From Octopus vulgaris (Eukaryota): a stretch of DNA of 64,000 nt. The first letter of the stretch is position 1. Every line of letters begins with the position of its first letter. Below the pieces are notes generated by a model. The model ran no database searches. It was not told where the DNA came from and worked only from the letters and a program-made list of their open reading frames with translations. Position numbers and translations under genes: made by a program. Positions 2,135 to 58,924 of the stretch are shown here, piece after piece. The DNA is taken from the NCBI GenBank assembly GCA_951406725.2, contig OX597816.1, positions 102,486,001 through 102,550,000 of the forward strand. The letters are read 5' to 3'.

Positions 2135-3060
2135 TCTCTGCTATTTCTAAATTATAAATCTACCACTGAGGAGGGAGCCGGTTTCCAACAAAGAGACAAG
2201 GCTCCATCTTTGGAATGTAGTCAACATAGGCAAATTCACATTTGGAACTTGAGAAGAGTCTTGCATATTTTTACTGTTCTACTCACAGATTGCACTTGCA
2301 ATGTACGAATTGGCCGATCGATTTCTCTTCCTGAAAACCCCAGTTTATCCAGATTCTTCTTTAAGCATTTACTAACAAAACCTAGTGATCCAATTATTAT
2401 TGGTATGATTATGAATTCATAGTCTGTATATAGAAGCTGGCGGTTTCGAAGCAGTTGTCCAAAGATATCCTCTTTTTCTTTGATTTACAAAGAGATATTT
2501 ATATCTGCAGGGTAGCTGACCTCTATGACGGTACATACATTTGCCCCTCTGCTCCAAACGACAATATCCAGCCTGTTATGCTTATTTTTCACGGAGGTTT
2601 TGATGGGAATATTCCACCCGTATTTCTTGAGTTGGTGTTTATGATTGTATTCCATAACAGAGGGATTTTCTAAGTTTATTTCAGGACAGTCTTTCTTGAG
2701 GATGGCATTGTAAATGTTTTAGCGAGAAAATCGTGCCGCATAGGGAGATAATACCGTGACGACATTTTAGGACAGCTGCTAATCAAATGCGTGATGTCTT
2801 CCACAGAAACATGACATAGACTACACATGCGGTTGCACCTTGGGGTTACAAGAGTGTCACTGTCTCTCTTCTTCACCAGATACTTTGTGGCAATCTCCTG
2901 TTCCTGGATTGCAAACGCATAGCCTTCAAAGTGTGATATGATGTTTTGTCTTGTGTCCAAAAGAGGCTGCGCTTTGTGTCAATTCTACTGTCTTCTTCAA
3001 GCTTCCGGGTAACATACCCATGCATAGTCTTTTTTTGTATGCTGAGTGCTTTCCATCCAG
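2135..3060 (-). mobile_element. 5'-truncated R4/Dong-like retrotransposon (CCHC knuckle, RLE endonuclease, 3' UTR), frameshifted
   Basis: AIQEQEIATKY...CSLCHVSVEDITHLISSC...RHD, then WNIPIKTSVKNKHNRLDIVVW...VIEVSYPAD (PD..D/E nuclease); ends in a CATA/CATG repeat. Confidence 0.85.
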
Positions 3061-5090: not shown

Positions 5091-5290
5091 TGTATATATA
5101 TGTTCGTCTGTCTGTGTTTGTCCCCCACCAAGATCGCTTGATAACCGATGCTGGTGTGTTTACGTTCCCGTAATCTAGCGGTTCGGCAAAACAGACCGAT
5201 TGAATAAGTACTAGGGGTCGATTTTGCTCGACTAAAGGCGGTGATCCAGCATGGCCGCAGTCAAATGAATGAAACAAAAGAATAAAAGAA
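4813..5290 (+). mobile_element. tRNA-derived SINE family A (CORE-like centre, internal TA microsatellite, LINE-derived tail)
   Basis: A box TGGCTGTGTGG, B box GGTTCAGTCCC, CCTTGGGCAAGT segment; homologous copies at 22153, 27120, 37469 and 45720/47830. Confidence 0.85.
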
Positions 5291-7344: not shown

Positions 7345-8254
7345 TATGGGCAAACCACGCCGTTTTTACACATGAGGCTAAATGTATGTTTATTAAACGT
7401 ATGTTAAGTTCTATTTACAGTTTATCTACACGCATAAACTTGCCTCATGACTTTAGTTCTGTTGATAGATTATAGCTTCATTATATATACACTGCTAAAG
7501 AATGTACTGACACATAAATGAATAAAATCCGTGCATGCTACACATAGCATTTTTCATAACACATCTCTGAAATGTCTGCTCGCTCAGTAGGACGAATCGG
7601 TGCTCACATTCATGATAATGTGCATGTGTTAGGATGAATTCTTGCCTGTTTTTGCAGAGAAAAGATAGGAACTATCGCTAAATTATGTTTCTATTCTAAA
7701 ACTGTGTGATACTACATTATTTTTTCCCCTTTCTTCTCTCTCCTTTTCGTCTCTTCCTATCTGATTTCTGATTTAAACTAAAGACGTCAGCTTGGAGAAT
7801 ATTATATTATCAATTAATTGAATATTTATTTTTCTGTAATTTCATGTTGAAAGTATACAACTACAGGATCAAGTTTGTCCGTAGACATGGAACCAGTGAG
7901 AAATATTAAATATTCAATGAATGATCAATATGATATCTTGAGTTACTTATGATTATACGTCTGAGAGAGGAAAAAAAAAACCCAAATAATTTTTACAGCT
8001 TCCTTCTCGTAAGTGAAAAATGGATGAACCAATAGTTGAACAGCTTATATAGAGACATATAGATTCTTTACATGATATAGCCTGTAATTAATCGCTCAAC
8101 CTACTGGAAACAAGAGTCCAACTCCTCAAATACATTCTACAATCTAAAAACAAACAAACAAACAAAAAAAAACATTAACAATGCAGTTCCTGATGATGAT
8201 TTGGTTACTGATCGAATGACATAGATCATACTCAATCAGGCGAGATCTAGGGTT

Positions 8255-9075
8255 TCACAGTATCTCGCCCCCACCCCAAAATTCACAAAGATTTACAAAC
8301 CAGTTTCATCACATCTACTAATGGTCCTGGCCCAGACAACATCCCAGTGGAACTTCTAAAACATAGTCGACTATTAAACACCAGTCTGTTCACATTGATT
8401 CTCCGAATGTGGAAGAACTGCCATGTCCCTAAAGACTTCTAAGATGCTGTTATTATCACCATTTTCAAAAAAAAAGAGATAGAAAGATCTGTGGGAACTA
8501 TCGTGGCATCTCACTGCTCTCCACTGCAGGGAAAATTTTTGCAAGACTCCTTCTGGATCGTCTCTAAACTATCGCAGAGGAAGTCCTGCCCGAATTACAA
8601 TGTGGATTTCGACCATCCAGAGGGATAACTGACATGATCTTTTGTGCTCGACGAATACAAGAAAAGAGTAGAGAACAACAAAACGTCTCTATTTTGTTTT
8701 ATACGACCTCGAAAAGGCCTTTGATACCGTGCCAAGGACTACAAACTGGAAGGTCCTACGACGTTTTGGCTGCCCACGCGACTCGCGAAGAGGGGTTTTA
8801 GAACAAAGATCTGAACCACAAAACAAAATTAAGTGTCTACCAAGCAGTCGTGATCTCCACTCTCCTCTACGGCTGTGAAACCTGGACTCTTAACCGAAGT
8901 GACGTCACAAAACTAGAGCGATTTCACCAACAGAAGCTCCGTTCTATTATGAATATTAAATGGTGAGAACGAAAAGCAGTAGCATCGAGGCTACCATCCT
9001 GAAACATCGTCTGAGATGGGCGGGTCACATAGCAAGAATGAAAGAAACCAGGCGGCCGCGTCAAATTTTATATGG
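8255..9075 (+). mobile_element. RTE-clade LINE reverse transcriptase relic with internal deletion
   Basis: GPDNIPVELLK, GNYRGISLLSTAGKIFA, QCGFRPSRG, DLEKAFDTV, then TLLYGCETW and LRWAGHIARM; stops and frameshifts present. Confidence 0.9.
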
Positions 9076-9609
9076 TGAACTTTCCCCCGGAAAAAAACTC
9101 CGTGGCTGAAAAAAAAAAAAAATCCACTGTAGAAGGAAAAAGAAACATCTCCTGGATAATAACCACGAAGAAAAAAAAAAAAACCACGAAAAATCCAGAC
9201 CACATCGTTGGATTAAGTATCACTTTCATCTTCTATTTCATATTTTGTTTATTATCCTATTTTATATAACCTAAGCCCACATCTCCGTTAAAGTCTACGA
9301 TCGCTATTTTTTTTTTTTTTTTTTTTTTTTTTGTTTGTTTACATTTCAATAACTGTCTCGAACTTGGCTTCAAAATTAAATAACCCTTTCTTCACACTTT
9401 AAAATATATATATATTTTAATATATTTTCACTCATTTTCTTTCTTTTTTTCCACCTTCCTTCTCTCCCCGTCTGTGTATATGTGTATGTGTGTGCACCTG
9501 TATGTATGTGTGTGTGCGTGTATGTATATATGTATGCGTATATATGCATGGACGTGAACTTTCACGAACTTTATATAGATAACTAATCTTTCCCCTCTTT
9601 CTTACCTCT

Positions 9610-10440
9610 TTCAGATACTCCATCTTCTAATTAGCCTTAAGATTAAATAACGTTTAATACTGTTTATTGTTAATAATTTTTCAGATACTCTATCTTCTAA
9701 TTAGCCTAAGAATAAACAACGTTTATTACCCACACTTTAACATCTAATTTTTTACCCACACTCTAATATCTTTCTAATTAGCCTTTTTACCCACATTTTA
9801 AATATTTGTTAATATATTTTCAGATACTCTATCCTCTAATTAGCCTTAAAATTAAATAACGTTTCACCCACACTTTAATATATTTTTGGATGCTCTACCT
9901 TCTAATTAGCCTCAAGATTAAATAACGATTATTACCCACACTTTAATATAATTGTAATATTGTTAACATATTTTCAGATACTCTATCCTCTAATTAGCCT
10001 TAAGATTAAATAACGTTTTACCCACACTTTAACTTTAACTTTTTCACCCACACTTTAATATATTTTTGGATGCTCTACCTTCTAATTAGCCTCAAGATTA
10101 AATAACGATTATTACCCACACTTTAATATAATTGTAATATTGTTAACATATTTTCAGATACTCTATCCTCTAATTAGCCTTAAGATTAAATAACGTTTTT
10201 ACCCACACTTTAACTTTTTCACCCACACTTTAATATATTTTTGAATACTCTACCTTCTAATTAGCCCCAAGATTAAATAACGATTATTACCCACACTTTA
10301 ATATAATTGTAATATTGTTAACATATTTTCAGATACTCTATCTCCTAATTAGCCTAAGATTAAATAACGTTTTTACCCACAAACTTTAATATTGTTAATA
10401 TTAATAATACTCTATCCCATAATTAGCCTTAAGATTAAAT
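9610..10440 (+). repeat. Tandem array of ~60-90 bp monomers with a ~175-180 bp higher-order period, directly upstream of ORF1
   Basis: 11 copies of TAATTAGCC (mostly within CAGATACTCTATC.TCTAATTAGCCTTAAGATTAAATAACG) interleaved with ACCCACACTTTAA; higher-order units start near 9862, 10042 and 10217. Confidence 0.92.
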
Positions 10441-10500
10441 ATCTTCTTGTCTTCTCTCGAACATAGTTAAATAGATAAACAAATAGACAGATCATCCAGC

Positions 10501-11409
10501 ATGTCCAGAGCATGGAGACCTGACGAGCTGGATTTATTCGTACAAGCATGGGAGTGCGCCGGCGGAGATAGCCCTAGCGAGGTGATTGCGGCTGCGCTGA
10601 AGAGCAGAGGCTACAAGAGGACAGCGGCTCAGATGGAGCGAAAGAGACGGGAATTCGTGCGCTCATATGCGCTTGTACGGTCGCACATTGGCGCACTTGA
10701 TGCCATCTTTGAGAACGAGCGAGGCAAAGATGACAAGAATGGAGACGATGAAAGAAGTCACCCCCACCTGGTGGATGCCCGGGAGGAGGTTTTGAATGAG
10801 AAACCTGCCCAGGAAGTGAACCCAGGTGCAATTTCTCCAACCGGCAGCAAAGGCCATGGAGACGGAGAACCCGGTGAAGAGGTAGAGGGAGGAGGAAGAA
10901 CTAAAAGAAGGGCTGGTAGAGCTAAAGGAAAAGCTCAAGCAGGACCAAAGGGTGAAAAAACCAGGAATAGAAGTGGAACCGCAAAAGATGGAAACGGACA
11001 GCGCACACAGGTGTGTAGGTTCTACCTGAGAGGTTCCTGCTGGCATGGAAAGGAAGGTGCAGGCTGCCGCTTTGCACATCGGAGACCCTGCCACAGAGAC
11101 ACGAGGCAGATGGACAAACCGTCAACACAAGGAAAAGGGATGGACCACGCACCACTTGCCCCAAAGCGGAGGTACGCAGATGTTGTGCGTGCCACAAACC
11201 ACCAACATGATGTTGTCGAAAGGGCAGCTGCTGAGCAACAATCTTTTTTGTGCATGGCACAAAAGATTGTACAGCAGCTGACCTGGCTTCATCAAACCCA
11301 AGCCCGCAGGTGGGACTACCCACTATATACCAGACCACCACCACAGCAAACAGACCCAGGATGGACACCACCGGCAACAGCGTACACCTCACCTCGATGC
11401 TCCTACTGA
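10501..11409 (+). CDS. LINE ORF1 protein, 302 aa: N-terminal trihelix/Myb-SANT-like domain, charged linker, CCCH zinc finger
   Basis: Intact ORF; WRPDELDLFVQAW...IAAALKSRGYKRTAAQMERK...Y...LDAIF; CRFYLRGSCWHGKEGAGCRFAH (C-x7-C-x8-C-x3-H, 11014-11079). Confidence 0.85.
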   Translation: MSRAWRPDELDLFVQAWECAGGDSPSEVIAAALKSRGYKRTAAQMERKRREFVRSYALVRSHIGALDAIFENERGKDDKNGDDERSHPHLVDAREEVLNEKPAQEVNPGAISPTGSKGHGDGEPGEEVEGGGRTKRRAGRAKGKAQAGPKGEKTRNRSGTAKDGNGQRTQVCRFYLRGSCWHGKEGAGCRFAHRRPCHRDTRQMDKPSTQGKGMDHAPLAPKRRYADVVRATNHQHDVVERAAAEQQSFLCMAQKIVQQLTWLHQTQARRWDYPLYTRPPPQQTDPGWTPPATAYTSPRCSY

Positions 11410-14359
11410 ACATCAGAGGACTGCAAACACTCAGTAACAGGACAAAAATCCCGTTCCTGAGAGATTTTGTTGCATGCAATCAAGCCTTATGCATAGCACT
11501 AACGGAAACGCACCTGAAACCGGATATAGCAGATGCGGAGTTACACATACCACAGTATGCTGTACTACGGACCGACAGGAAAGAAAGGAGTCGTGGAGGT
11601 GTTGCTATGTACATCCGTGAGGACCTCACACCGCAGGTCCTCTTGTCATACTCAAACTCGGTGTGTGACACACTAATTGTACATATTAGGCAACTTGATG
11701 TAGTTGTGTGTGCTACATACCGCCCTCCAGATGCCCCAAGCCATGTAGGCAAGTTTGAAGACTGCCTTATAAAAATAGAAGACGTTCTAACCACATTAGA
11801 ACAACACATAAGTGTACTTCTTATGGGAGACTTCAATCTGCCAAATGTCAGATGGCCCGAGGGCCTTTCTCTCCCAGGAATGACAAGATGTGAACGAGGA
11901 CAGGCGAGGTCCCTCCTGAACCTCATCAACACCCTGTACATGGAGCAGGTAATACTCCAACCAACCAGGGCAGGTAACACACTGGATCTCTGCTTCACAA
12001 ATGACATGGATCTCATCCATAATGTGAAAGTGACACCGACACTACTCTCGGATCACAACATGATAGAGCTGACCATGTACGGGCCAAAAGAGAGCACGGA
12101 CATGCAGCCTACAAGAAACCCTCAAAATCTTTCCAGCTTGAACTACCATAAGGCAAACTGGAAACAAATTGAGAAAGAGATCCTCAAACAAAACTGGCCT
12201 AAATGTCTCTCCTCGCCAGACATCGACGTGAAACTTCAACAATTCATGTCTGTAATGCAAGCCATATGCTACAAATGTGTCCCAGAGAGAAAGGCCACTG
12301 TACACAAGAACAAAATCCCCAGAGAGAGAGGAAAATTTTAATGAGACGGCGTACGAAATTTTCAAATCGCCTAAACAAACAGATTGAAAGCAGTGAAAAG
12401 TCCCGCCTAAAAATAAAACTGTTGGAAATCGAAAAATGTCTGCAACTCTCCCATGAAAAAGAAAGAGCAGACAAAGAAGCCTGGGCTATAGAAAACATAA
12501 AATCTAACCCCAGAGCTTTCTACAGGTATGCCAAAGAAACAGCTACAGTGCACTGTAGAATAGGGCCACTCCTCGAAAAGGATGGCACACTTACAGGAAA
12601 ACCAATGAGGGTAAGTGAAATACTGAATGAGCAATTCAAGAGTGTTTTCACTCCACCCCTTGGGCATCTCCAAATCACCAATCCAACTGACTTTTTTACC
12701 ACTGCAGATATAAAATCAGAGGCGGCGACGATAGATTACATCGATATAAAGGAAGACGATGTAACCAAGGCTATAGATGAAATGAAAACAGACTCAGCTA
12801 CTGGCCCCGATGGATTCCCGGCAATCCTCCTAAAAGCATGTAAGAGAGTCCTAGCAAGACCACTGCAGTTCCTCTTTCAGAGCTTCCTTGCAGCTGGCAA
12901 ACTTCCAGGAAAACTGAAGGAAGGTAAAATATGCCCCATTCATAAAGGAGGTAGCAGAGCGGAAGCCAAGAACTATAGACCTATCTCTCTGACCTCACAC
13001 ATCAGCAAGGTCATGGAACGAATAGTCAGAAGGAAGCAGATCACCTTCCTTGAAGAAAATGACTTGCTGCCCGACACCCAACATGGTTTCCGACCAGGGA
13101 GAAGCTGTTTAACTCAGCTCCTACAACACTATGACTGGGTGCTGAAACGGCTGCTCAACCACTCAAATGTGGAAGTGATATATCTCGACTTTGCAAAGGC
13201 CTTTGATAAAGTCGATCATGGAATGATATGTCACAAACTGCGTGATCTCAACATAGTTGGAAAACTGGGAGAATGGCTTCATGACTTTCTGAAGGATAGA
13301 AGTCAGGTGGTAGTAGCCAATGGGGCCACCTCCATTAACACACAAATAGTGAGCGGTGTTCCGCAGGGCACTGTTCTGGGACCACTACTGTTCATAATGG
13401 CCCTCTCAGACATGCCCTCAGCCACGCAGAGAGCCACGATCACAAGTTATGCAGATGATACAAAAGTTTCACAGGCAATACAGAACCCTGAGGACACTAA
13501 ACACCTGCAATGTGAGCTGGACGAAATATACAAGTGGGCTGAAAAGAATAGCATGCAGTTCAATGCTGGGAAGTTTCAAGCTTTATACTATCAGCATGCA
13601 AAACTGAATGCAATACCCAATGAATACACTGGACCCGGAGGGATTGCAATCCCAGAGGCACAATCAGTGCGTGACCTGGGTATTCACATGAGTGATGACG
13701 CGACCTTTCATGTATATGTTGCTAAACTGACAATGAAATGTAGACGGCTGGCTGGATGGATTCTTAGAACCTTTAGAACAAGAGAACAAGAAACCATGAT
13801 GATCCTCTGGAAGACACTTGTCCTAAGCCACTTTGACTATTGCTCTCAGCTATGGTCACCATCCAGTGTCAAGTTGATGACAGAACTTGAGGCGATCCAA
13901 CGAAGCTACACGAAGAAGATAGCCTCTATGCAGAATGTAAGCTACTGGGAAAGACTCAAGAGATTAAAATTATATTCCCTGGAGCGTAGGCGGGAAAGAT
14001 ATGCCATAATATACATCTGGAAGATCCTGGAGGGAAGTGTCCTGAACTTTGGCATCGAGAGTTACGCAAATGCCAGAACTGGGCGCCACTGCGTGGTGCC
14101 TAGGACTCCAAACCTGCCATCAAGATGTAGGACAAGATTCTGTGATAGCCTGGGCTTCCGAGGCCCACAGCTCTTCAATATCCTCCCGAAGAACCTGAGA
14201 GACCTGCATGGGGTGGATACAGATGTCTTTAAAATGAAGCTGGATCTCTTCCTGTCAGGTGTCCCAGATGAACCAACTTCACGGCAGGAGGGGTAGATGA
14301 GGGCAGCTGCATCGAACTCTCTCATGCACCAAATAGCAGTTGCTAGAAAGCCTTCATGA
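11397..14359 (+). pseudogene. LINE ORF2 (AP endonuclease plus reverse transcriptase) with one frameshift and a probable late nonsense codon
   Basis: NIRGL, LTETHL, YRPP, GDFN, TLDL, SDH; then NYRPISL, QHGF, YLDFAKAFD, GVPQG, YADD (13448-13459). Frame switches in (AG)5 at 12321-12330; TAG at 14294-14296 is followed in frame by MRAAASNSLMHQ. Confidence 0.92.
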
Positions 14360-14455
14360 AGTGAAACCAAGTAGCAACACCAAATGGCGGTGCCCCAGCA
14401 TGGCCACAGCTCATAAGCTGAAACTAGAATCAATCAATCAATCAATCAATCAATC

Positions 14456-14768
<313 letters not shown>

Positions 14769-14774
14769 ACACAA

Positions 14775-15800
14775 CCAAAGCATTCTATAGGGGTTTAGTG
14801 GAGGGGAGGTACGACGACGAGCTCGGGGCGAACCTGGACGTCGACGAGGAGTACCTGACCCGCCTGTTCAGGACGACTTTCGGGCCAGGGCCCATGGACA
14901 ACTTCCAGAGATCCCTGGCCTGGCAGTGCTACCGAGAAGCGCTACCCGTTCGGGATAAGCTCTACAGACACGGCTCGAGAAACACGGGGCCGACCTGCCC
15001 GAGATGCGGTCAGAGCGACGAAACCGTTCTGCACGCACTCGTTCAGTGTCCAACAATTTCCGACCTGTGGGCTTATGTCGAACAACTGCTGTCACGTGTG
15101 GGACGAGTCGGTTTATCAGCTGAGTCTATCGTCAATATTGTCACGCCTCCTTCCTCCAAACGGGAAGGAAGAGCTATTTTCATCATCCTTGTGGCTATGG
15201 CGAAGGAATGTATCTGGTGGACGCGTCTGAAAGGATTGGAGACAAACACTTTCCTCTCTGGTCAATCTCTCATCAACTTCTTCAAGTACCACTTGAAAAG
15301 GAAAGTGAGAGTAGAGAGGCAAGTTTTGTCTAGCGAATGTTTTAAAAAGATGGGTGAATGTAGCAAGAATGGCACGTATGAATGACGAAGCCACCTTGAG
15401 CATAGTCCTATGAACCCAGAAATCGAAAACAGAGAGTTGCTTATTTGCAAAAAAAAAAAAAAAAAAAAAAAGAAATATAAAATGTGACTTCATTGACCGA
15501 GGTTACCGTGGTCTTTTCCGTAGGCTTTTCTTTCCACGGGTAAACCTCACCTGTCCTCCCCTTTACACTTCATATTGACATTTCTGTGATAACGATCCCT
15601 ATTGATCATTTTTTTTTTTCCTCTCCCCCTTTTTTAACCCCCCTTTTTTTTGTCCTCTTTCTCTCCTTTTAAGATCCCTTTTGATCGAAACTCCCCCTTC
15701 CTTTTTTTTTTTTTTTTTTTTTTAAACCTTCAAAAGAAAAGCTCTACCTTGTAATTTGTTCTATCTGTGTGCAGCCCTGTGTGGCTAATAAAGAAACATA
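14775..15800 (+). mobile_element. 5'-truncated Tx1/L1-clade retrotransposon (C-terminal zinc finger plus pyrimidine-rich 3' UTR)
   Basis: SLAWQCYREALPVRDKL...CPRCGQSDETVLHALVQC...W (zf-RVT-type CCHC); 3' end CAGCCCTGTGTGGCTAATAAAGAAACATA; microsatellites on both sides. Confidence 0.88.
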
Positions 15801-16058
15801 TCTATATCCATACATACATGCATTCATACATAATACATACATACATACGTACATATATACATAATTCATAATAATACATAATACATACATGCATACATAC
15901 ATAAATACATACATACATACATGCATACATAATAGATGCATACATAATACATGCATATATAATACATACATACATAAATACATACATACATGCATACATA
16001 CATAATACATACATACGTAATACATACATACATAATACATACATACATACATACATAC

Positions 16059-19974: not shown

Positions 19975-20411
19975 AAGGTGGCAAGCCGACAGAATCGTAA
20001 GCACGCCGGACAAAATGCTTAGTGGCATTTCGTCCGTCTTTACGTTCTGAGTTCAAATTCCGCCTGGGTCGACTTTGCCTTTCTTTCTTTCGGGGTCGAT
20101 AAATTATGTACCAGTCGAATACATGGGTCGATGTGATCAACTATCTTCGTCCACGCAATTCCAGGCTTTGTGCTTATATTAGAAACGATTATTATTATTA
20201 AAGCGGCGATCTTGCAGAATCGTAAGTACGCTGGACAAATTGTTTAGCAGCATTTCGTCTGCTTTTACGTTCTGAGTTCAAATTCCGCTGAATTTGACAT
20301 TACCTTTCATCCTTTCTTGGTTGATGAAAGAAGTGCCAGTCGAGTACTGTGGTTGATGTAATCGACTTACCCCCTACCCCAAGTTGCTGGCATTGTGCCA
20401 AAATTTGGAAG

Positions 20412-20412
<1 letters not shown>
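19975..20412 (+). mobile_element. Two tandem SINE family B copies with (ATT)n tails
   Basis: Each has CAGAATCGTAAG, GTTCTGAGTTCAAATTCCGC, a CCTTTC.T.CTTTC central block and an ATT tail. Confidence 0.85.
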
Positions 20413-20472
<60 letters not shown>

Positions 20473-34126: not shown

Positions 34127-36253
34127 TTGTAAACTCGATAAACCTGATATAATGATTTAGTATAGAGAAGAGAAACTGAGAGCAGTTGTGGAAATCAGAT
34201 GCCCAGCAGATGTTAATATAAAGCTGAAGATCAGTGAAAAAGAGAATACCTACGCTGAACTATTGAAAAATCTGCAGTTACTCTATCTAGATCACAAGTT
34301 CAGGTTTATACCTTTAACTATTGTGTAACTGGGATATGTAACGCACTGCCTCAATACCAATCTTGTGAAATTAGGTTTCTCAAAACGAGAAAGAAGGAGG
34401 CTGATTTGAAGACTACAGATCCAAATCATCACTAGAAGTGTAAAAGTCTGTAAAACTCCCCAGAAGTCTATCCTTTAAGTATGTATAGGGCATGTATAGA
34501 TATGCAAGGATATGCATGAGAAGACATACATAATACAAATCTGCACGTATACATACATACATACATACATACATACATACATACATACATACATACATAC
34601 ATACATAGATACATACATACGTACGTACGTACATACATACATACATACATACATACATACATACATACATGCATACATACATACATACATACATACATAC
34701 ATACATACATACATACATACATACGTACGTACGTACGTACATACATACATACATACATACATACATACATACATACATACATACATACATACATGCATGC
34801 ATACATACATACATACATACATGCATACATACATACATACATACATACATACATACATACATACATACATACATACATACATACATACATACATCCAAAC
34901 ATACTAGGTTGTCACTCATGAATTGTCGAATTTGAAAAGTAACAATGAAATGTTTCAGAAGTGTTAGAGAACTGATTTATTTAATCAAAGTATAATCCAT
35001 GTTCAGTTATGACCTTTGCCCAACGTTTCCCTGAGTTATGTATACCATCTTAAAAAAATTTCATCTTTTGCTGTGACGAACTGTCCGAATGCTTCAATTA
35101 CCTTTTCTCTATTTAAGAATGTTTTATTGCATATGAAAAGCTCCAAATGCTTAAATAAGTGTTAATCAGTAGGAGAGATATCAGGAGAATAGGGAAGATA
35201 TTGCAACTTTTGGACCGGAGCTTGAGAAGTGTTAGGCCGTGCATTGTCGTGGAGCAAAATTGGGCCATCTCTATTCATTAATCTAGTTTGCTTCTTTTTC
35301 AAATTCTCATGCATACAATCAATTTTCAGGCAATATGATGTTGCTGTTACCGTTTTTCCTTGTTGCAAAACTGAATAATGAATAACACCCTTCGCAGATC
35401 ACCACACAGTGACCACTAACTGTTTAGGGCGAAATGGTGGTTTTGGGCAGAGTTTAGAAGACGCTTCTGCATCTAATCACTGTCCTGTTCGCCTGCTGTT
35501 GTCAAAGAGTATCCATTTTTCATCACATGTATTTATCCGATGCAAAAATGGTTCTTTTCCAGTTGAGAAAGCAGTAAGGAGCACACTTCGAGGCGCTTGC
35601 TTGTTTGAATCTCGTTCAGTTCATGTGAAACAAATCTATCCATTTTCTTGACTTTTCCAATTTTTCCAGGTGTCGAGAAACAGTTGTGCGAGATGTTTAG
35701 AGCTCTGATGAAAGTTTTCGGACCGTTGTTCTCAGATTTTGTTCAACCAAAACATTTAATCCATCATGCTGCGTAACTGATTTTGGCCTCCCCCTTGGTT
35801 CATTTTCAAGGCAATCATCTCCTGAACGATATCTTTGGAACCATCTCTGGACAGTTCTGATGTCAACAAAACCATTACCAAAGGCCCGCTTGATATTCCG
35901 TAGAGCTTCTGCAGCAGAGTGACCTTGTTTGCACGCATACAAGAAAACCACTCATCATTGTTTCGTTGTTATCATTTTCATAAGGTCTGTGGGTACGAAT
36001 TTTGTATTTCAATATTGTTTGGAAAGAAAAAAGAGTCAAAATTAAATGCAAGGGTATACAAAATTGAGTTTTTAAATGCCTGAAATAACAAGTAATTAAA
36101 AATGTGACACTTCATATGTGACAACTTAATACATTCATGCATACATACATACATACATACATACATACATACATACATACATACATACATACATACATAC
36201 TTACATGCATACATACATACATACATGCATGCATACATACATACATACATACA

Positions 36254-47629: not shown

Positions 47630-47812
47630 TATTCGCTAACCACTACACACACTGTAGTTTCTCTCCTTGTTACTTTCTGCGTTCCTTTCTGTAGAAGAGC
47701 GTAGGCTCGAAACGTTAACGATTTTTTCACTTCCCGAGCATTAAGCTAATACATCTGTTTGTTGTATACACCACCTGTCTTCGTCTTTTATTTTTGTGTG
47801 TGAATTCTCCCC
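47630..47812 (+). mobile_element. Short repeat with a variant hammerhead core, related to the 16790-17030 element
   Basis: TTT-CTGTAGA-A-GAGC GTAG GCTC-GAAAC-GTT-AA (47686-47718); same downstream TTCC.GAGC layout. Confidence 0.55.
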
Positions 47813-47829
47813 CTATATATATATGTATA

Positions 47830-48052
47830 CCTGTGTGTGCATGTTTGTGTGTCTGTGTTTGTTCCCCCCCACCATCGTTTGACAACCGATGCTGGTGTGT
47901 TTGCGTCCCCGTAACTTAGTGGTTCGGTAAGAGACAGATAGAATAAGTACTAGGCTTACAAAGAATAAGTCCTGAGGTCGATTTGCTCGACTAAAAGCAG
48001 TGTTCCAGCATGGCCGCAGTCAAATCACTGAAACAAATAAAAGAATAAAAGA
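47830..48052 (+). mobile_element. SINE family A, 3' half
   Basis: CATCGTTTGACAACCGATGCTGGTGTGTTT...CAGCATGGCCGCAGTCAAATCACTGAAAC. Confidence 0.85.
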
Positions 48053-53235: not shown

Positions 53236-53571
53236 TATTTTTGTTTTGATTTCGCAAGAATGAGAGACAAGATCGTTTACAAATTAAGAAGGAATGGGTT
53301 AGAGATGTAATACAGTATATGGAAGGATGTATTAAGCATTGTAAAAGCACACAAACACACACACATACACGCACATACGCGCATGCACATACAGATGCAA
53401 GCATATGGACATATGTATACGCACACATTTTTGCACGGAAATAAATATAAAACGCAACCATAAAGCGCACAATAATCAAAATAAGATACATTGAAAAAAT
53501 ACAAGGCGTGAAAGATTTTCTGGCTATGTTGAGTTGTGTATTATACCAACCATTTCTTCAAATGTGTTGGA

Positions 53572-53913
53572 GTGCATCCGAACGGTAAACATTTCGAGAT
53601 ACTTGGAACTGGAAGACTCCAATATCTTGAGGACATATTCTTTAAAGTTCTATTTAATGTTTTAACTTTACTTTTGGTAGCAGTGTATCCGAACGGTAAA
53701 CAGTTTCGAGATACTTGGAACTGGAAGACTCCAATATCTTGAGGACATATTCTTTAAAGTTCTATTTAATGTTTTAACTTTACTTTTGGTAGCAGTGTAT
53801 CCGAACGGTAAACAGTTTCGAGATACTTGGAACTAGAAGACTCCAATATCTTGAGGACATATTTTTTAAAGTTCTATTTAATGTTTTAACTTTACTTTTG
53901 GTAGCAGTGTATC
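53572..53913. repeat. Recent tandem triplication of a 111-112 bp unit
   Basis: Units start at 53572, 53683 and 53795 (remnant at 53907) with only a few differences. Confidence 0.95.
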
Positions 53914-58430: not shown

Positions 58431-58639
58431 TTTTGAGTCGATCTCAGTAGACAAGGCTTGTCATGTCATCCTCCGCAGACCTCCGCCAAGCAGCTCATTT
58501 TAAGAAAGATACGCGAGTAAAATTACTAATAGAGAAACGAAAATGAACTTTGGAAACAGCAACGCCACCATAGGTTACGTGCAAACGATGAACGTGTTTT
58601 CAAGGGAGATAATCAAAGAACGTAGCTATATTAATAGGA

Positions 58640-58762
58640 TGAACCAAACTAACAACATCAACATCAAACGAGGCATCTTTCAAGGTGACTCCCTCTCTCC
58701 ATTACTCTTTTGCATGGCACTGATCCCACTCTCAAACGAACTAAATAACACCAGGTATGGGT
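58640..58762 (+). mobile_element. R4/Dong-like RT fragment
   Basis: INIKRGIFQGDSLSPLLFCMALIPLSNELN. Confidence 0.8.
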
Positions 58763-58924
58763 TATTATTATTATAATAATAATTATTATTATGGGTTCTT
58801 CTTCTTCTTCTTCTTCTTCTTCTTCTTCTTCTTCTTCTTCTTCTTCTTCTTCTTCTTCTTCTTCTTCTTCTTCTTCTTCTTCTTCTTCTTCTTCTTCTTC
58901 TTCATGTTATTATTATTATTATTA

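Follow-up and report, generated by a model that had tools for sequence, protein, structure and literature searches.

In the case of the rodent L1 elements L1Md A, Tf and Gf, tandem monomers are located 5′ of ORF1 and connected to it by a non-monomer tether, with a more diverged ORF-proximal monomer (PMC9022269, in the passages available); the monomers measure approximately 200 nt and form a CpG island, and the tether spans approximately 250 nt (available parts of PMC5381506 and PMC9022269). For vertebrate CR1-group elements, the available text of PMC13343379 describes one to five repeating subunits, each 100-500 bp long, close to the 5′ UTR in some elements that lack ORF1, and that of PMC4120745 mentions repetitive 5′ regions. 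Repeats in the 5′ UTR of some Drosophila retrotransposons act as enhancers or insulators, as described in the accessible part of PMC3286476.

Here, we analyzed a 64,000-nt stretch of Octopus vulgaris DNA (the window), which consists of microsatellite-rich animal DNA of 36% GC. It contains an AT-rich monomer array immediately upstream of a LINE ORF1, and the features of this region are summarized in Table 1. With rodent L1, the array shares the tandem monomers 5′ of ORF1, the non-monomer tether and the more diverged ORF-proximal monomer, but it differs in its monomers of 62-92 nt, its 26% GC, its 59-nt tether, its A/B higher-order structure, its decayed 5′-most monomer and the CR1-type element involved. 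With the vertebrate CR1-group subunits it shares tandem repeats near the 5′ UTR of a CR1-group LINE, whereas the octopus array comprises 12 shorter monomers preceding an intact ORF1 of another type. As in the gypsy insulator and ZAM, short cores are repeated in what is probably a 5′ UTR; those repeats, however, come from LTR retrotransposons whose host factors have been tested, while the present array probably belongs to a LINE.

Table 1. Coordinates of the array, the downstream LINE and adjacent features within the window.
Feature	Positions	Strand	Description and basis
Degenerate RTE-type LINE fragment	8251-9215	+	RVT_1 E 1.3e-4 at 8672-8875; three-frame translation
T-rich stretch	9216-9342	+	55% T; T run 9307-9340; composition
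Decayed twelfth monomer (m0)	9343-9430	+	A-type head, B-type tail, eroded core, TTTTCA end
Interruption between m0 and m1	9431-9613	.	183 nt; TTTCA at each end; junctions
3′ splice-site-like sequence	9583-9614	+	Strong; branch-like CTAAT, pyrimidine tract, CAG; interruption/m1 junction
Main array	9609-10441	+	11 monomers of 62-92 nt; 26% GC
Three higher-order units	9862-10390	+	B+A monomer pairs; period 180, 3.0 copies
Tether	10442-10500	+	59 nt, no ATG; monomer homology stops at about 10441, ORF1 ATG at 10501
ORF1	10501-11409	+	302 aa, open; Pfam, 34 relatives, model, fold searches
ORF2	11235-14296	+	APE endonuclease and reverse transcriptase; Exo_endo_phos_2 E 7e-13, RVT_1 E 1e-29
LINE 3′ end	14297-14456	+	(AATC)7 tail at 14428-14456

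The monomers of the main array are built around the core TAATTAGCC, which occurs 11 times in the window, always on the plus strand and always within 9628-10420, at successive spacings of 70, 77, 62, 66, 88, 92, 88, 87, 88 and 74 nt. The 10-mer CTAATTAGCC is matched ten times against 0.14 expected, a count reached by none of 100 shuffles. Inside the array, the ACCCACACTTTAA box is found nine times exactly and 11 times with at most one mismatch, being missing in m1 and m11, altered in m10 and doubled in m6 and m8. The palindromic CTAATTAG is present in 10 of the 11 monomers and nowhere else in the window, and ACCCAC boxes number 12. A-type monomers (m1, m2, m4, m6, m8 and m10) start with TTTCAGATAC, and B-type monomers (m5, m7 and m9) lack the AG of this start; the remaining two are m3, which is short and rearranged, and m11, which is eroded and lies at the array edge. 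Successive higher-order units are spaced 180 and 175 nt apart. In a permutation test, the core is the longest invariant run (p 0.02 with eight monomer types; 0.07 without m11; 5e-5 with the rearranged m3). The array is T-rich, with 9 CpG and two ATG in its 833 nt, and its GC content contrasts with the 46-54% of the ORFs; folding of its RNA is unremarkable (z-score 0.33, with 12 of 20 shuffles folding equally well). Similarity of the tether to m0 and m11 is borderline (control fraction 0.04-0.05, against 0.34-0.51 for the other four monomers tried), and the tether is possibly a further eroded monomer.

These observations bear out the preliminary description as regards the 11 monomers with an invariant core, the interleaved box, the higher-order units of about 175-180 bp and an array end some 60 nt before the ATG. 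It had also placed the greatest homogeneity near the ORF, but the maximum lies in the middle of the array: m5 and m7 are identical and the heads of m4, m6 and m8 are 98-100% identical, while the m11 head reaches 67-80% against the others. The term "iteron-like" describes an analogy of shape alone, the neighbor being a LINE ORF1 in animal DNA and not a Rep gene; a comparison with 72,556 plasmids returned no match, and a 25-nt monomer pattern had no exact match in GTDB prokaryotic genomes.

A short monomer-like piece had been noted at about 9373-9400, and it proved to be part of a larger decayed monomer, m0 (about 9343-9430). Its score of 66 exceeds the best of 3138 control pieces (41), the score of its head (37) was reached by none of 4172 controls, and it is 72-79% identical to the other monomers over aligned columns. 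It is also the best nhmmer match outside the array (E 0.015; next best E 3.5). Since m0 ends with TTTTCA at 9430 and m1 resumes in phase with TTTCAG at 9609-9614, the simplest reading is that the intervening 183 nt were inserted into a formerly continuous array. This interruption contains a degenerate TG/TA microsatellite, GGACGTG (9550), a pyrimidine tract, TATATA (9572-9577) and nine ATG, and part of it is similar to a low-complexity stretch at 47806-47858 (78% over 55 nt, E 4e-5). It also contains a perfect three-unit HSE-like GAAnnTTCnnGAA (9556-9568), followed by TATATA, some 30-40 nt 5′ of the main array. The HSE pattern occurs twice in the window against 0.45 expected, and 8 of 100 shuffles reach this count; given this and its location in the interruption, the HSE and TATA combination at 9556-9577 was rejected as a signal.

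Further upstream, 9216-9306 was compared with the monomers as a potential continuation of the array, and its similarity is not significant (control fraction 0.09-0.44). The T-rich stretch as a whole (9216-9342) could represent either the unique 5′ terminus of the element or host DNA. The fragment preceding it, which we take to be RTE-type from its motifs, ceases to be recognizable as protein at about 9215, and the 5′ end of the LINE that follows can lie no further upstream than this position.

The LINE downstream of the array appears from its sequence to be a dead, near-complete, CR1-type element, with an apparently intact 5′ region. A frameshift near 12330 interrupts ORF2, and a stop (14294-14296) cuts it off short of the C-terminal end seen in P0004, its closest relative; the two ORF2 pieces share 84% and 86% identity with P0004. 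The closest named relative among the 120 matches listed is an Argonauta hians record (58% identity), and in a reverse transcriptase tree of 28 rows the two fall within a 100/100 group of seven. RNase H was not found in ORF2, RVT_1 being the sole Pfam domain in P0003, and no C-terminal CCHC pattern was found in the ORF2 protein of the window or in seven relatives. The CR1 group is defined by an ORF2 without RNase H and without a C-terminal CCHC finger. The combination of APE endonuclease and reverse transcriptase, the lack of both features and a tail of short tandem repeats instead of poly(A) fit this group. None of the described ORF1 types (esterase, PHD, RRM, CCHC, transposase-22) is among the six Pfam matches at E ≤1, which is compatible with CR1 membership because the ORF1 type varies within the group. 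A search for target-site duplication gave a longest match of 8 nt, within microsatellite, and no duplication was found. Other copies of the LINE are absent from the window, where its body matched itself, microsatellite and SINE-like 3′ ends.

ORF1 and ORF2 overlap at 11235-11409 in different frames, and the ORF2 start of P0004 corresponds to position 11250, within ORF1. Near its 3′ end, LINE sequence at 14386-14412 is common to three SINE-like repeats at 5237 (+), 22505 (+) and 27174 (-), with 5-7 mismatches in 27 nt, and 20 shuffled queries gave no match; the LINE family is thus a candidate mobilizer of the SINE. Elsewhere in the window, the LINE tail is followed by a Tx1/L1-like 3′ fragment with zf-RVT (14780-15800, E 4e-8), and a second zf-RVT piece lies at 2679-2978 (-). 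A mariner/Mos1-like transposase remnant occupies 35165-35951 (-) (HTH_48 E 4e-16, Transposase_1 E 6e-8), and a weak reverse transcriptase fragment lies at 58504-58773 (+) (E 7.5e-4). Long-period tandems comprise a 225-nt SINE-like dimer (19990-20425) and a 112-nt repeat of 3.1 copies at 98% identity (53571-53913). An Rfam scan of 8000-16000 returned ten matches, all to microRNA models far below their cut-offs and nine of them on microsatellite.

The age of the LINE copy was estimated from ORF2 residues that are near-invariant in 45 relatives (the first of the 120 listed with a length of 950 aa or more). Six of 137 such residues are changed in the reverse transcriptase piece and none of 21 in the endonuclease piece, against medians of one and zero changes per relative, respectively; assuming neutral decay, this corresponds to approximately 1.7% (range 0.6-3.7%). 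The edge monomers (m0 and the m11 head) are too diverged to be explained by this decay, and the array is therefore older than the LINE insertion. In contrast to these edges, higher-order units 1 and 2 are identical at all 174 aligned positions (P 0.003 for 1.7% decay and 0.12 for 0.6%), while unit 3 differs at 5 of 173, matching the expectation from copy age. Judging from the sequence, one higher-order unit was probably duplicated in place after insertion, with an assembly artefact as the alternative. A homogeneous middle, eroded edges and one late duplication would be expected from turnover by slippage or unequal exchange, and the array would not be renewed from a start site within each monomer.

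An array that predates the insertion was either inherited from the parent element or present at the host site, and we consider it probable that it is carried by the LINE rather than by the host. Long-period arrays are otherwise few (one other with a period of at least 60 passed the filter, and up to three were allowed for in the estimate), so that insertion this close (60 nt) to the end of an array has a likelihood of approximately 0.2-0.6% by chance; moreover, a profile search of the 64 kb recovered no monomer beyond the LINE 3′ tail, which argues against a LINE that simply split a host array. The absence of a target-site duplication marking the 5′ end counts against an element-borne array, and the host-like interruption with its nine ATG fits a 5′ UTR poorly, except if it postdates the insertion. 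An unlikely explanation is that the array is a local minisatellite of the host that has no relation to the LINE and was in place before it; the LINE would then have landed at its edge, either complete with a short UTR or truncated just above ORF1. The array is indeed older than the copy, was interrupted by host-like DNA and went on changing in place; its low GC content and T-rich composition are sharply unlike those of the ORFs; and P0152, a distant ORF1 relative (41% identity), has a reading frame that runs for 179 residues across microsatellite-like DNA immediately upstream of its start, so that no comparable array is present there in this copy or gene model. A host origin nevertheless requires the coincidence estimated above, leaves the absence of monomers past the 3′ tail and elsewhere in the 64 kb to be explained, and sits poorly with a 3′ array edge that is eroded and not freshly cut.

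With regard to function, the reading that we tentatively favor is that of a minisatellite in the 5′ UTR of a CR1-type LINE, working as a multimerized factor-binding module. The 5′ end of the element and its start site would lie at or above the decayed monomer, at about 9216-9343, and the monomers would multiply short factor sites, namely the palindromic CTAATTAG, which we take by consensus to be a homeodomain-type site, and the ACCCAC box. The block may act in an enhancer- or insulator-like manner, as do the 5′ UTR repeats of some Drosophila retrotransposons; the gypsy insulator has AT-rich spacers. The low number of ATG in the array and their absence from the tether support this reading, as do the 5′ repeats described for CR1-group and Drosophila elements. 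The invariant core and the array-restricted palindrome mildly favor a protein-binding site; against this, the core test weakens without m11, and 11% of 85-nt AT-rich controls also contain TAATTA. The array could also travel with the element and yet have no function. A poly(A)-signal reading was rejected: ATTAAA or AATAAA is present in 10 of the 11 monomers, yet also in 24% of AT-rich controls. A sigma-70 scan, irrelevant to animal DNA, found 8 sites against 8.4 expected and was likewise discarded.

The preliminary description had regarded the array as the 5′ UTR promoter of the LINE by analogy with rodent L1. Placement in the 5′ region is favored by the low probability of coincidence, but the analogy itself fails on base composition (26% GC with 9 CpG), the 59-nt tether and the decayed 5′-most monomer. 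A promoter of the mouse L1 type is rather improbable; in it, transcription would start at the TTTCAGA of each A-type monomer, 28 nt upstream of a DPE-like AGATT, and the array would be renewed since copies start within a monomer. Six monomers start with TTTCAGAT, which we take to fit the BBCABW initiator consensus. The DPE consensus is RGWY in its relaxed form and RGWYV in its strict form. In three of these six monomers (A at 9613, 9976 and 10156), RGWY lies exactly at +28, an arrangement found in 2% of 1860 AT-rich controls, and the homology of m1 begins precisely at the initiator-like motif. Such initiator-like and DPE-like words 28 nt apart, in three monomers, recall the promoters of jockey, Doc, F, I, TRAS1 and SART1; the 28-nt initiator-DPE spacing and the use of DPE promoters by insect LINEs are taken from the available part of PMC4748587, and a diverged 3′-most monomer also occurs in mouse L1 (PMC9022269, in the passages at hand).

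Jockey-type elements, however, possess one promoter at the 5′ end, and the array misses the strict consensus: with three initiator definitions, no pair of initiator and strict RGWYV at +28 to +32 was found in 9300-10500, nor any TCAKTY-based pair. Three of the six A monomers lose the spacing or the motif, and B monomers lose the initiator. In addition, m1 starts at TTTCAG, yet a decayed monomer lies upstream of this supposed start in phase, with no duplication marking the 5′ end, and a self-renewing promoter should not be expected to keep such a monomer. The low GC content also departs from the CpG-island monomers of rodents (PMC5381506, as far as its available text goes), and the motifs were picked post hoc from consensus sequences. 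The GGACGTG that had been likened to a downstream promoter element is present at 9550, but it is left without a partner, since no strict initiator-DPE pair exists in 9300-10500 and no initiator lies at the right spacing.

The junction of the interruption with m1 raises a different explanation, in which an upstream promoter is borrowed and its transcript is spliced into the ORF1 leader at one of the repeated TTTCAG acceptors, acceptors further downstream staying in the RNA for the next copy. We regard this as very improbable. The site was found post hoc; by a general acceptor rule, 9614 is one of five strong acceptor-like sites in the 64 kb, counting both strands (three lie on the plus strand), its use would remove 9 of the 11 upstream ATG, and TTTCAG, which starts six monomers, is present in 4.5% of AT-rich control pieces. 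The strong pyrimidine tract, however, belongs to the interruption and not to the monomer, none of the other five sites passes the rule, and the AG is lost in B monomers. Scanning of 148 ORFs (of 255 complex ORFs and 581 in total) revealed no credible host exon, and spliced-leader splicing is not established in molluscs according to the available part of PMC3795323. A strong donor-like site on the minus strand (9598-9607) lies partly over the pyrimidine tract of the acceptor on the plus strand; it is an equally good match, at 9606, and indicates that such motifs arise easily.

ORF1 begins with a Myb/SANT-like three-helix region (aa 1-75), followed by a disordered linker, a CCCH zinc finger (about aa 172-194) and a long C-terminal helix (aa 225-271). 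Both Pfam matches lie below their cut-offs, namely Myb_DNA-bind_4 (PF13837; E 0.0065, 17.3 bits against a cut-off of 27) and zf-CCCH (E 0.011), and the former recurs in 3 of 11 ORF1 relatives, likewise below the cut-off. A full HMMER search retrieved 34 relatives at E ≤0.001, so that the absence of matches in word-index protein searches (with a single sequence, or with a profile against proteins of 281-2000 aa) is weak evidence. Among the 24 relatives listed, P0124, P0126, P0128 and P0133 combine the N-terminal domain and CCCH as in the window ORF1, the finger of P0129 is degenerate, and many of the relatives consist of N-terminal fragments. In the protein P0136, a Lipin_N protein carries a fused piece of the ORF1 family, pointing to either a chimeric gene model or a transcript that arose by insertion into a lipin gene.

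Conservation within the family is highest in the N-terminal domain, where R40, Q44, K48 and Y56 are near-invariant in 21 aligned sequences. In the structure model, helices span residues 7-19, 25-35 and 42-75, with pLDDT of 85-97 over residues 1-70, and helix 3 is basic (six K/R and two D/E in aa 41-62). Fold searches with an 80-residue single-sequence model of the N-terminus ranked Myb/GARP DNA-binding domains first and GT-1 lower down. The best match, ARR1 (Z 7.9, rmsd 2.1, 57 aligned), falls below the Z 8 noise level, Foldseek gave E 0.15 or worse, and SANT, homeodomain and other helix-turn-helix folds score similarly to Myb. An Atlas search with aa 1-78 gave leads all below 0.9, with 8 of the 10 best family matches Myb-related; the whole ORF1 yielded no usable match in the Atlas, and a PDB sequence search with the ORF1 profile returned none. 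The domain thus shares three helices and a long basic third helix with Myb/SANT-like and trihelix domains (PF13837; GT-1, GARP), but all its scores are below cut-off, its helix 3 has no tryptophan, and it sits in a LINE ORF1 together with a CCCH finger. For the Myb-like ORF1 of the preliminary description, a conserved three-helix fold is supported, although every score falls short of a confident cut-off; from the model, a Myb-like fold of the N-terminus is likely.

This fold suggests a further possibility, a rival or an addition to either element-borne reading, in which the Myb-like domain of the ORF1 protein would bind the core or the box and repress or activate the element. We consider it doubtful. 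The conserved three-helix domain, its basic helix 3 and the leading Myb/GARP matches are consistent with such binding, as are nine [AT]TTACC sites that read on the minus strand as what we take, by consensus, to be trihelix GT-box-like. Against it stand the weak fold scores and the lack of any PDB sequence match, and the domain may instead function in chromatin binding, in recognition of the target site or in contacts with proteins. Feedback switches are known for Myb-bearing DNA transposons. By comparison, a Myb-like ORF1 binding the 12-unit array in its own 5′ UTR would constitute such a switch, with the dose set by monomer number and the SINE possibly driven via the shared 3′ end, a scheme to which we assign little probability.

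As tandem 5′ arrays are already known in LINEs, the array by itself is modest news. Literature searches by title and abstract start found no description of Myb or CCCH in a LINE ORF1. Among surveys of the CR1 group, the main text of PMC4120745 is without Myb, CCCH and SANT and that of PMC13343379 without Myb and CCCH; in the part of PMC4120745 available, the ORF1 domains named are CCHC, RRM, PHD and esterase, with CCCH not among them, and neither PMC7986045 nor PMC3747384 contains mollusc or octopus terms. In these searches we found no printed description of an ORF1 type combining a Myb-like domain with CCCH, a family that Repbase, Dfam, subscription journals or supplements may contain. LINE expression in the octopus brain is of current interest (PMC9115989), and the authors of that study found no full-length copies assembled in short-read genomes. 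Less ordinary than the array is the combination found here, a near-complete CR1-type octopod LINE with an AT-rich higher-order array and a Myb-like/CCCH ORF1. LINE ORF1 proteins are regarded as RNA chaperones, and sequence-specific binding of ORF1 to the promoter region of its own element, if true, would represent a new role.
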